From the NCBI RefSeq assembly GCF_054482525.1, contig NZ_CM137006.1: 64,000 nucleotides of DNA; one strand, given 5' to 3'. The translations under genes were made by a program, and so were the position numbers. Below the pieces are notes generated by a model that worked only from the letters and a program-made list of their open reading frames with translations, did no database searches and had not been told where the DNA came from. Each line of letters starts with the position of its first letter. The stretch's first letter is position 1. This document shows positions 38,422 through 43,580 of this stretch, one piece after another.

Positions 38422-39041
38422 GGCACGGGCTGCTGGCGCTGATTTGCTGGCTGTGTTGTGTTGTTGCCCATAGCGAAATGCTGAATGTCGAACAGTCGGG
38501 GCTGTTTCGCGCGTGGTTTGTACGCATTGCACAGGAACAACTCCGCCAGGGGCCAAGCCCACGCTGGTATCAGCAGGATTGTGCGGGCCTGGTGCGATTT
38601 GCGGCGAACGAGGCGCTGAAAATTCACGACAGCAAATGGCTAAAAAGTAACGGTATAGCAAGTCAGTATTTGCCGCCTGAAATGACGCTAACACCTGAAC
38701 AGCGTCAACTGGCGCAAAACTGGAATCAGGGGAACGGGAAAACCGGCCCCTACGTGACCGCGATTAATTTGATTCAGTACAACAGCCAGTTTATTGGCCA
38801 GGACATAAACCAGGCGCTGCCTGGCGATATGATTTTTTTCGATCAGGGCGATGCCCAGCACTTAATGGTCTGGATGGGGCGTTACGTCATCTACCACACC
38901 GGAAGCGCCACGAAAACTGACAACGGAATGCGCGCAGTCAGTCTGCAACAACTTATGACATGGAAGGACACCCGATGGATACCCAACGATTCCAATCCCA
39001 ATTTCATTGGCATTTATCGTTTAAATTTTCTGGCGCGATAG
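38418..39041 (+). CDS. yfaT: YfaT (DUF1175-family protein)
   Basis: ORF 38391..39041; start set at [20 protein letters not shown] (signal peptide); 4-nt overlap with yfaA. Confidence 0.8.
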
Positions 39042-42000
39042 CAGCGTGCTTGTCCCTGTCTCTTGTGGGAACAGGGCTTGCTAATGCTGATGATTCGCTT
39101 CCTTCCAGCAACTATGCGCCGCCCGCCGGGGGAACATTCTTTTTGCTCGCTGACAGCAGTTTTAGCAGCAGTGAAGAGGCGAAAGTGCGACTGGAAGCGC
39201 CGGGGCGTGATTATCGGCGCTATCAGATGGAAGAGTACGGCGGTGTGGACGTTCGTCTGTATCGTATTCCTGACCCGATGGCATTTTTGCGCCAGCAGAA
39301 AAATCTGCATCGCATTGTGGTGCAACCGCAATATCTGGGCGGCGGGCTGAACAATACGCTGACCTGGCTGTGGGATAACTGGTACGGCAAATCTCGCCGC
39401 GTGATGCAGCGTACTTTTTCTTCTCAGTCTCGGCAGAATGTGACTCAGGCGTTACCCGAATTACAGCTCGGCAATGCCATTGTTAAACCTTCCCGTTATG
39501 TACAGAACAGCCAGTTTTCACCGCTGAAAAAATATCCACTGGTGGAACAGTTCCGTTACCCATTATGGCAGGCTAAACCGGTCGAGCCGCAGCAAGGGGT
39601 AAAACTGGAAGGCGCATCCAGCAATTTCATCTCGCCGCAGCCGGGTAACATCTATATTCCTCTCGGCAAACAAGAGCCGGGACTGTACCTCGTCGAGGCG
39701 ATGGTCGGTGGATATCGGGCGACGACGGTGGTGTTTGTTTCCGATACCGTGGCGCTTAGCAAAGTGTCGGGTAACGAGCTCCTGGTGTGGACCGCGGGTA
39801 AAAAACAGGGGGAAGCGAAGCCGGGATCAGAGATCTTGTGGACTGACGGTCTTGGCGTGATGACCCGCGGTGTGACCGATGACAGCGGTACCTTGCAGTT
39901 ACAACATATATCGCCGGAACGTTCATACATTCTGGGTAAAGATGCTGAAGGCGGCGTTTTTGTCTCCGAGAATTTTTTCTACGAAAGCGAAATCTACAAC
40001 ACCCGCTTGTATATCTTTACCGACCGCCCTCTGTATCGTGCAGGCGATCGTGTTGATGTCAAAGTGATGGGCCGCGAGTTCCACGACCCGTTGCATTCAT
40101 CCCCCATCGTCAGCGCCCCGGCGAAGCTTTCAGTGCTGGACGCCAACGGCAGTCTGTTGCAAACCGTCAATGTCACGCTTGATGCGCGCAATGGCGGGCA
40201 GGGAAGTTTCCGCCTGCCAGAAAATGCTGTAGCCGGAGGTTATGAGTTACGTCTTGCTTACCGCAATCAGGTCTATAGCAGCAGTTTTCGCGTGGCAAAC
40301 TACATCAAGCCACATTTCGAGATTGGTTTAGCTCTCGACAAAAAAGAGTTCAAAACAGGCGAAGCGGTCAGCGGCAAACTGCAACTGCTTTACCCGGATG
40401 GAGAGCCGGTAAAAGATGCCCGTGTGCAGTTAAGTTTGCGCGCTCAGCAATTATCAATGGTCGGTAACGATTTGCGTTATGCCGGACGTTTCCCGGTGTC
40501 GCTGGAAGGCAGTGAAACGGTGTCCGACGATAGCGGTCATGTGGCGTTAAATCTCCCCGCCGCCGATAAACCAAGCCGTTATTTGTTAACCGTCTCCGCC
40601 AGTGACGGCGCGGCGTATCGAGTTACCACCACCAAAGAGATCCTCATTGAACGCGGTCTGGCGCATTACTCTTTAAGTACCGCCGCACAATACAGTAATA
40701 GCGGTGAATCGGTTGTGTTCCGTTATGCCGCGCTGGAATCTTCAAAACAGGTTCCTGTTACGTATGAATGGTTGCGTCTCGAAGACCGCACGAGCCACAG
40801 CGGAGATCTACCTTCTGGTGGCAAATCCTTTACCGTCAATTTCGATAAACCGGGTAACTACAATCTGACGTTACGCGATAAAGACGGCTTAATTCTCGCC
40901 GGGTTAAGCCATGCAGTCAGCGGTAAGGGCAGCACGTCGCATACTGGTACGGTAGATATCGTGGCAGATAAAACGCTGTACCAGCCTGGCGAAACCGCGA
41001 AGATGCTGATTACCTTCCCGGAGCCAATTGATGAAGCATTATTGACGCTGGAACGCGATCGCGTTGAACAGCAGTCGCTGCTATCGCATCCGGCAAACTG
41101 GCTGACGTTACAACGTTTAAACGATACCCAGTATGAAGCCCGCATACCAGTGAGCAATTCCTTTGCACCTAACATCACTTTTTCGGTGCTGTATACCCGT
41201 AACGGTCAGTACAGTTTTCAGAACGCCGGGATCAAAGTTGCCGTTCCCCAGCTGGATATCCGGGTGAAAACGGACAAAACCCATTACCAGCCTGGTGAAC
41301 TGGTCAATGTCGAATTAACCTCGTCGCTGAAAGGTAAACCTGTTTCTGCGCAGCTAACGGTTGGTGTGGTCGATGAAATGATCTACGCGCTGCAACCGGA
41401 AATCGCGCCGAATATCGGCAAATTTTTCTATCCGCTGGGGCGTAACAATGTGCGTACCAGCTCCAGTCTGTCGTTTATCAGCTACGACCAGGCGCTCTCC
41501 AGCGAGCCGGTTGCGCCTGGCGCGACTAACCGCAGCGAGCGGCGAGTAAAAATGCTTGAACGTCCACGGCGTGAAGAGGTGGATACCGCGGCATGGATGC
41601 CGTCACTCACAACCGATAAACAAGGCAAAGCGTATTTCACGTTCCTGATGCCTGATTCGTTAACCCGCTGGCGCATTACCGCCAGAGGGATGAACGGCGA
41701 CGGGCTGGTCGGGCAGGGGCGTGCTTATCTTCGTTCGGAAAAAAATCTCTACATGAAGTGGAGTATGCCAACGGTGTATCGCATGGGCGACAAACCGGCA
41801 GCAGGACTGTTTATCTTCAGTCAGCAGGATAACGAACCGGTGGCGCTGGTGACTAAATTTGCAGGCGCTGAGATGCGCCAGACGCTGACGCTGCACAAAG
41901 GGGCGAATTATATTTCGCTGACGCAGAACATTCAGCAATCTGGCTTGTTAAGCCGCAGAACTGCAACAAAATGGGCAAGTGCAGGACAGCATTAGCACAA

Positions 42001-43580
42001 AACTGTCTTTTGTGGATAACAGCTGGCCCGTTGAACAGCAGAAAAACGTCATGCTCGCCGGTGGCGATAACGCGCTGATGTTGCCCGAGCAGGCGAGCAA
42101 TATCCGGCTACAAAGTAGTGAAACGCCGCAGGAGATTTTCCGTAACAATCTTGATGCGTTAGTCGATGAACCGTGGGGTGGCGTGATCAACACCGGTAGC
42201 CGTCTGATCCCGCTCAGTCTCGCCTGGCGTTCGCTTGCCGATCATCAAAGTGCCGCCGCTAACGACATTCGTCAGATGATTCAGGATAACCGTCTGCGGC
42301 TGATGCAACTGGCGGGGCCCGGAGCGCGCTTTACCTGGTGGGGTGAAGATGGCAATGGTGACGCCTTCCTTACGGCATGGGCATGGTACGCCGACTGGCA
42401 GGCCAGCCAGGCGCTCGGCGTAACGCAACAACCGGAATACTGGCAGCATATGCTCGACAGTTATGCCGAGCAGGCAGATAACATGCCGTTATTGCATCGG
42501 GCGCTGGTGCTGGCGTGGGCACAGGAGATGAATCTGCCGTGCAAAACGTTGTTGAAAGGGTTGGATGAAGCTATCGCCCGGCGCGGAACTAAAACTGAAG
42601 ATTTCTCTGAGGAAGACACCCGCGATATCAATGACAGCCTGATCCTCGATACACCGGAATCTCCACTAGCAGATGCGGTGGCAAACGTCTTAACCATGAC
42701 GTTGCTGAAAAAAGCGCAGTTGAAGTCCACTGTGATGCCACAGATTCAGCAATACGCGTGGGATAAAGCGGCAAACAGCAATCAGCCGCTGGCGCACACA
42801 GTTGTGCTGCTCAATAGCGGGGGCGACGCTACCCAGGCGGCTGCTATTTTAAGTGGTTTGACCGCTGAGCAATCCACTATTGAACGCGCGCTGGCCATGA
42901 ACTGGCTGGCGAAATATATGGCGACAATGCCTCCAGTTGTTTTGCCTGCGCCTGCGGGCGCATGGGCCAAACATAAGTTAACTGGAGGGGGCGAATACTG
43001 GCGTTGGGTTGGTCAGGGCGTGCCGGACATTCTCTCTTTTGGTGACGAATTATCGCCGCAAAATGTGCAGGTCCGCTGGCGTGAACCAGCAAAAACGGCT
43101 CAACAAAGTAACATTCCGGTGACCGTTGAACGCCAGTTGTATCGGCTTATCCCCGGTGAAGAAGAGATGAGCTTTACTCTGCAGCCGGTGACCAGCAATG
43201 AGATTGACAGCGATGCGCTGTATCTCGATGAAATTACGCTTACCAGCGAGCAGGATGCAGTTCTGCGCTATGGTCAGGTGGAAGTACCGCTCCCGCCGGG
43301 GGCTGACGTTGAGAGGACAACGTGGGGCATTTCGGTCAATAAACCCAACGCCGCGAAACAGCAGGGGCAGTTGCTGGAAAAAGCGCGAAATGAAATGGGC
43401 GAACTGGCCTATATGGTGCCGGTGAAAGAACTGACGGGAACGGTCACTTTCCGGCATTTGCTGCGCTTCTCGCAAAAAGGGCAATTCGTTCTGCCTCCTG
43501 CTCGTTATGTGCGTTCCTATGCACCTGCACAGCAAAGTGTTGCGGCAGGGAGCGAATGGACCGGGATGCAGGTGAAATAA
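38975..43580 (+). pseudogene. yfaS: Frameshifted alpha-2-macroglobulin family gene yfaS
   Basis: Two consecutive ORFs (38960..41995 and 41979..43580) in different frames, both alpha-2-macroglobulin-like; the frame switch maps to about 41945..41952. Confidence 0.8.

Follow-up and report, generated by a model that had tools for sequence, protein, structure and literature searches.

A one-base insertion divides the alpha-2-macroglobulin gene yfaS in a small lineage of Escherichia coli

Introduction

What has happened to a gene whose coding sequence is open from end to end, but only if two reading frames are combined? The question is raised by yfaS, the alpha-2-macroglobulin (A2M) gene of E. coli, as it occurs at positions 38975..43580 (plus strand) of a 64,000-nucleotide stretch of DNA from contig NZ_CM137006.1 of NCBI RefSeq assembly GCF_054482525.1. 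The whole stretch is referred to here as the window. An earlier reading of the letters alone, the sequence-only reading, found yfaS split by a frameshift within an otherwise intact operon, and offered recent inactivation, sequencing error and programmed frameshifting as explanations. The gene is split over its two frames by one extra C at 41953/41954. This is very probably a genuine and recent loss-of-function mutation, a C to CC insertion at codon 993/994, confined to a single lineage.

The lesion in yfaS

In the list of open reading frames (ORFs) and their translations, a first frame starts at 38960/38975 and ends with a TAG at 41993-41995, and a +1 frame opens immediately past a TAA at 41949-41951 and continues to the normal stop at 43580. 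Alignment of 41880-42010 with intact alleles shows where the two part company. The window and strain PCN033 read TTAAGCCGCAG, FCI48 reads TTAAG-CGCAG and K-12 reads TTAAG-TGCAG; the motif at the insertion is AAGCGCA in intact alleles and AAGCCGCA in the window. The extra C was established base by base against four intact alleles and causes the premature stop, as the native frame is left after Ser993 (codon 993/994) and the TAG is reached after 13 wrong residues. Removal of the extra C in silico gives an uninterrupted ORF of 1534 codons, encoding 1534 amino acids (aa). The two-frame yfaS is a specific lesion and not a chance pattern. The parts of the divided gene are as follows.

41953..41954, plus strand: CC doublet, one of its two Cs being the inserted base (alignment; intact alleles have AAG-CGC or AAG-TGC)
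38975..41995, plus strand: 5' fragment of yfaS, 993 native and 13 out-of-frame residues (translation)
41955..43580, plus strand: 3' remnant of yfaS in the +1 frame, 541 stop-free codons encoding the bMG10-containing region (translation, Pfam)

The two frames described in the sequence-only reading are thus confirmed by the ORF list, the translations and the alignment. The comparison it proposed, of 41900..42000 with single-ORF strains, is contained in the alignment above and shows one extra C, and the continuous ORF of about 1530 aa that it expected once the indel was removed agrees with the 1534 codons obtained. It was right to place the switch inside 'ttaagcc' (41948-41954), but the interval 41945..41952 that it gave falls short, the true site being 1-2 nt further right.

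The start of the gene affects the description of its product. A GGAAGGA Shine-Dalgarno sequence lies 6 nt before the ATG at 38975, a start that gives the 1534-aa protein and takes yfaS into the conserved 3' end of yfaT, with an overlap of 67 nt. An exact look-up of the 1006-aa product of the divided gene, counted from this start, found contigs encoding the identical protein; the same look-up with the 38960 start (1011 aa) gave no match. The N-terminus encoded from 38975 contains a putative signal peptide.

38975..39088, plus strand: putative signal-peptide N-terminus of YfaS, MDTQRF...GTGLANA followed by DD (from the sequence; cleavage site, between ANA and DD, judged by eye)

In the RefSeq annotation produced by PGAP, yfaS starts at a GTG at 39065, and the hydrophobic, signal-peptide-like N-terminus is lost. 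This N-terminus also has a lipobox-like IAAC (Cys25) besides the ANA/DD site, and both are candidate processing sites.

Distribution of the allele

A 61-nt probe centred on the insertion was compared, by exact match, with 5426 complete E. coli genomes. The CC allele is present in only three of them: PCN033 from a pig, SCU-102 from a healthy human in California, USA, and 19KM1776 from a dog in Switzerland. PCN033, of porcine origin, is an extraintestinal pathogenic E. coli (ExPEC) of serotype O11 and phylogroup D (PMC4578781). RefSeq flags yfaS as 'frameshifted' in all three. The same CC, with an identical 1006-aa product followed by a 533-aa ORF, is found in the Logan read-set assemblies SRR1656258, ERR13187044 and ERR15872038, so that seven independent sequences (the window, three complete genomes and three read-set assemblies) carry it. 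A search of the literature found no discussion of the yfaS frameshift in this lineage, and the PCN033 genome paper makes no mention of a macroglobulin (PMC4578781).

Over 64 kb, 7-10 bases separate the window from each of the three complete carriers, which points to a single insertion event inherited within one near-clonal lineage. It also has alleles that none of the three possesses, at 45746 (yfaP G171V), 57307 (alkB R204L) and 61672 (intergenic between eco and yojO), and therefore represents a fourth strain, outside the 5426 complete genomes.

Elsewhere in the species the site has one base fewer. At least 80% of a 501-bp stretch around it is covered in 5374 other genomes and, among the matches listed, every non-carrier spans at most 500 bases as against 501 in the three carriers. 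The insertion site was read directly in six intact alleles. Annotation was checked in 15 other non-K-12 genomes, ten taken from a spread listing and five chosen as close relatives, and yfaS is intact in 14 of these.

Age of the lesion

The nearest intact full-length allele is that of T-HYM1, which is 99.0% identical. The head of the divided gene, upstream of the insertion, has 24 synonymous and five nonsynonymous codon differences from T-HYM1, and the tail has 11 and five. Purifying selection has therefore acted on the tail during most of that divergence, and the similarity of the two ratios, together with the lack of stop codons in the tail, indicates that the lesion is recent. E300010 and UID2309220033 share the identical yfaP-rcsC junction downstream of the operon, but their yfaS alleles are only 97.8% identical. 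As no close intact sister allele was found from which the event could be dated, its age is bounded only qualitatively.

Mutations that arose within the lineage tell something of what followed. The window and its three relatives differ by 14 mutational events over 64 kb. Three of these are in the yfaS tail (read in the old frame, D>N at 42456, A>V at 42889 and L>Q at 43462), and two more lie in the genes beyond, yfaQ E540K in 19KM1776 and yfaP G171V (G>T), the latter unique to the window. All five changes in the stretch from the frameshift to the yfaP stop are derived and nonsynonymous. For five of 14 events within 6.3% of the window the binomial P is ~0.0013, on tiny counts and for a region set post hoc; three of 14 in the tail, 2.5% of the window, has a P of ~0.005, again on small numbers and post hoc. 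The clustering downstream of the lesion hints at relaxed constraint and points away from mechanisms in which the tail is still used.

The predicted product and its relatives

The repaired YfaS contains four Pfam domains, MG2 (E = 5.7e-19), A2M_BRD (2.6e-17), A2M (5.6e-12) and bMG10 (5e-06). MG2 (aa 344-440), A2M_BRD (661-806) and A2M (871-953) are in the head, and bMG10 is near the C-terminus, at aa 416-524 of the tail. A bait-like motif is also upstream of the frameshift.

41528..41542, plus strand: bait-like motif NRSER, aa 852-856 (match to the MagD bait ANRSERG; PMC5764988)

The truncation falls 140 residues after the bait, which is retained in the short product. The truncated protein keeps the putative signal peptide, the N-terminal MG domains, the bait and the A2M domain, and loses the last 541 residues including MG10; its predicted mature mass is ~107 kDa versus ~166 kDa for the full-length form. 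No CxEQ thioester motif is present in the repaired 1534 aa, which have only two cysteines, at 25 and 1189. A search of PDB sequences with the lost C-terminal part gave nothing meaningful up to E = 10, and the full YfaS gave only a weak MG-domain match to complement C5. By analogy with the scheme in the MagD literature, the lost region may be 'TED-like'.

The best-studied relative is MagD of Pseudomonas aeruginosa, the product of the central gene of magABCDEF. YfaS and MagD are both large periplasmic A2M homologues with MG, bait and A2M domains, the NRSER motif and no CXEQ. The order magB-C-D-E-F is that of the yfa operon, which is known here from its sequence and comprises five genes without the leading magA copy; in the window, unlike in P. 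aeruginosa, the central gene is cut at residue 993 by the frameshift. YfaT matches MagC (PDB 7BK8) with E = 3.4e-103 and ~75% identity over 186 residues. The other partners are matched to MagB, MagE, MagA and MagF through their COG assignments in E. coli, which we take to be the corresponding ones. The correspondence of COGs to Mag proteins is that of Table 2 in PMC3735191. The repaired YfaS has three of the features that mark Type II, namely the domain set, the absence of CXEQ and operon partners of the Mag type, and the yfa cluster, judged by sequence, corresponds in E. coli to magBCDEF, which encodes a Type II A2M complex. The Type I bacterial A2Ms (ECAM/YfhM and Salmonella Sa-A2M) share MG2, A2M_BRD, A2M and bMG10 with YfaS, but they differ in having a lipobox and a CLEQ thioester and in the pairing of their genes with pbpC, whereas YfaS has no CxEQ and is encoded in a yfa/mag operon.

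MagD is a periplasmic protein that associates with the inner membrane; it traps a protease non-covalently after cleavage of the bait, both fragments staying together (PMC5764988). It occurs as 165- and 100-kDa forms (PMC3735191, PMC5764988). MagA, MagB and MagF are degraded when MagD is absent (PMC3735191), and MagD protects against some peptidoglycan-targeting type VI secretion system (T6SS) effectors (PMC12663445). In the divided yfaS, ribosomes starting at ATG 38975 fall out of the native frame past Ser993 and reach a stop 13 codons further on. If YfaS behaves in the same way as MagD, the C-terminal part missing from the product is presumably needed to close the trap around its target. As MagA, MagB and MagF are degraded without MagD, the periplasmic complex as a whole is probably non-functional in the lineage. 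Ribosomes would also come off the mRNA 1.6 kb before yfaQ, so that coupling to yfaQ-yfaP would be lost, and Rho-dependent polarity on these two genes is plausible.

Error, recoding or a divided gene

One alternative to inactivation is a sequencing or assembly error, the true genome having a single C and an intact yfaS. PCN033 was sequenced on the Roche 454 platform, which is indel-prone in runs of a base (PMC4578781). The run here, however, is a doublet rather than a long homopolymer; the identical CC was obtained for the window, SCU-102 and 19KM1776 by different laboratories, in different years, from different hosts and countries, and again in the three Logan assemblies from separate runs; and the members of the lineage differ at other positions, so they are not copies of one record. 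This replication makes the 454 history of PCN033 irrelevant, and an error is scarcely credible. A programmed +1 ribosomal frameshift, or transcriptional slippage, still giving full-length YfaS has hardly more to commend it. The downstream frame is open for 541 codons and overlaps the upstream one by 44 nt, shifts being permitted over 41952-41992, after which comes the TAG (AGC CGC AGA ACU GCA ACA AAA UGG GCA AGU GCA GGA CAG CAU UAG), and the overlap contains a rare AGA codon. The layout resembles programmed +1 frameshifting of the prfB type, in which a +1 downstream ORF overlaps an upstream ORF ending in a stop, but yfaS lacks the slippery CUU-U-type site, the upstream Shine-Dalgarno stimulator and the conservation of that type, and its intact orthologues are single-frame. 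Inspection of the overlap found no codon allowing +1 re-pairing of the P-site tRNA, that is, no slippery site; 41940-42060 contains neither a Shine-Dalgarno-like stimulator nor an A/T run of 7 or more; the folding of the downstream RNA is no better than that of shuffled sequence (z = 0.31); and an Rfam scan of the whole window gave no match at the frameshift, only MicF and naRNA4, both elsewhere. Furthermore, the two-frame state is derived, being limited to three of the 5426 genomes with non-carriers one base shorter among the matches listed, and the three substitutions within the lineage's tail are all nonsynonymous. Recoding can be rejected with the same assurance as error.

A functional split gene deserves slightly more thought, although it too is very unlikely. 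An exported 107-kDa N-fragment, perhaps with a C-fragment begun at GTG 41979, would in this case retain the function of the Mag complex. The N-fragment would be similar to MagD in its 100-kDa processed form, it retains the signal peptide, bait and A2M domain, and its partner genes are full-length. A C-fragment from GTG 41979, on the other hand, would have no signal peptide and could not reach the periplasm; the pieces of MagD remain associated after bait cleavage and both are needed to hold the protease; the tail is gaining nonsynonymous changes; and the lesion belongs to a single small lineage and is not a conserved architecture. Inactivation by a recent insertion, the first of the explanations offered at the outset, is favoured by a rare derived allele that is replicated across sequences and followed by a stop-free tail. 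Some points weigh against it nonetheless. That YfaS would lose its function without its C-terminal third is suggested by MagD and by A2M biology; the four full-length partners may mean some residual function of the system or of the truncated protein; the support consists of assemblies and their annotation; and the downstream enrichment in substitutions amounts to five events in a region chosen after seeing the data.

The operon and its neighbours

The segment runs gyrA, yfaA-yfaT-yfaS-yfaQ-yfaP and rcsC, all on the plus strand, by annotation transferred from identical RefSeq loci. The four partners of yfaS are the following.

36733..38421, plus strand: yfaA, 562 aa, DUF2138, MagB counterpart by COG, intact (NCBIfam equivalog NF008500, 899.9 bits; RefSeq)
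38418..39041, plus strand: yfaT, 207 aa, DUF1175, MagC homologue, intact (PDB 7BK8 match)
43581..45230, plus strand: yfaQ, 549 aa, DUF2300, MagE counterpart, full-length (junction, RefSeq annotation)
45235..46011, plus strand: yfaP, 258 aa, YfaP family, MagA/MagF counterpart, full-length (junction, RefSeq annotation)

All four are annotated as intact by RefSeq in PCN033, SCU-102 and 19KM1776, and YfaA has a hydrophobic segment at its N-terminus. NCBIfam gave no family match for YfaT or for either YfaS fragment, and the matches for YfaQ and YfaP were far below cut-off.

The gene identities and the operon order were correctly given in the sequence-only reading. Its account of tight coupling holds at two of the junctions: the TGA of yfaA and the ATG of yfaT share a 4-nt overlap (ATGA), and the GTG start of yfaQ at 43581 abuts the TAA of yfaS, with an AGGTGA Shine-Dalgarno sequence within the 3' end of yfaS. 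It does not extend to yfaQ and yfaP, which do not overlap, the ATG of yfaP at 45235 following the yfaQ stop after a gap of 4 nt. The description of the operon as 'otherwise intact' is likewise right as to the full-length partners, but yfaQ and yfaP each have an amino-acid change that arose within the lineage. The cluster can no longer be called so poorly characterized now that it is matched to the P. aeruginosa mag operon (PMC3735191, PMC5764988, PMC12663445).

In K-12 and many other strains yfaP and rcsC are separated by the ato operon (atoSCDAEB). The window lacks this operon, and 46012-46285 is intergenic there. The direct yfaP-rcsC junction is matched in 1536 of the 5426 complete genomes and is thus a common polymorphism.

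Other losses of yfaS

The same gene has been lost in K-12, in which yfaA, yfaT, yfaQ and yfaP are also intact and yfaS_1 is listed as a pseudogene (PMC3175480). K-12 owes the loss to an independent lesion, the nonsense change TGG>TGA at codon 1368 (W1368*) of b4500, at 7377-7379 of the K-12 locus and about 43077-43079 of the window, not a C insertion at codon 993. The exact K-12 61-mer including the stop occurs in 364 complete genomes, and the three listed are K-12-type laboratory strains. Two further genomes have defects in the operon. In HCP6S3_I2, yfaS is annotated as frameshifted, with a coding span 7 nt above normal that may be an assembly artefact, and in E300010 there is an internal stop in yfaA (835-2523 of its locus).

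A P. aeruginosa magD deletion mutant reportedly grows better in chlorhexidine. This report, the independent lesions and the cluster of substitutions in the yfaS tail, yfaQ and yfaP would fit a trade-off between cost and benefit that has the system discarded time and again. The frameshift might then mark the beginning of a loss, still under way and possibly adaptive, of the whole Mag-type system in the O11/phylogroup D ExPEC lineage, a bolder proposal that we consider improbable.

Other observations in the window and lineage

A search for an internal promoter for the tail ORF yielded a single promoter-like site, 41885-41914 (plus strand), a little upstream of the frameshift; this is one match where 7.8 are expected by chance, and it was given no weight. 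The two Rfam matches are the MicF small RNA at 52872-52965 (minus strand), upstream of ompC, and the REP-derived naRNA4 at 49135-49211 (plus strand), just after rcsC. PCN033 has a private single-nucleotide polymorphism at 53033, in the intergenic region between rcsD and micF and 68 nt upstream of the latter.

The classic quinolone-resistance change S83L (TCG>TTG) is present in gyrA of the window and PCN033 (codons 83 and 87 are at 34204 and 34215). PCN033 has D87N in addition, and SCU-102 and 19KM1776 have the wild-type serine at codon 83, so resistance alleles vary within this near-clonal lineage. SCU-102 and the window have five differences in 123 bp (10895-11017) within a TnpB gene of the IS200/IS605 type, in a comparison whose background divergence is ~1 difference per 10 kb; this cluster looks like gene conversion between copies of an insertion sequence rather than point mutation. 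In the inaA-glpQ interval, the annotation of PCN033, SCU-102 and 19KM1776 gives another 'frameshifted' hypothetical gene at ~22103-23173 (minus strand), and remnants of a LysR-type gene at ~23639-23980.

Significance

The yfaS of this lineage is an ordinary lineage-specific frameshift pseudogene, already flagged as such in public annotation, and beyond its correct annotation the case has little significance. It does mean that strains of the lineage, including the well-studied PCN033, are most likely without a functional YfaS or Mag-type alpha-2-macroglobulin. They are natural yfaS mutants in which the role of the system in E. coli could be tested, for example in protection against peptidoglycan-targeting T6SS effectors. 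For the gene itself, the lesions here and in K-12 mean that yfaS is lost sporadically and independently, yet remains intact in most E. coli.

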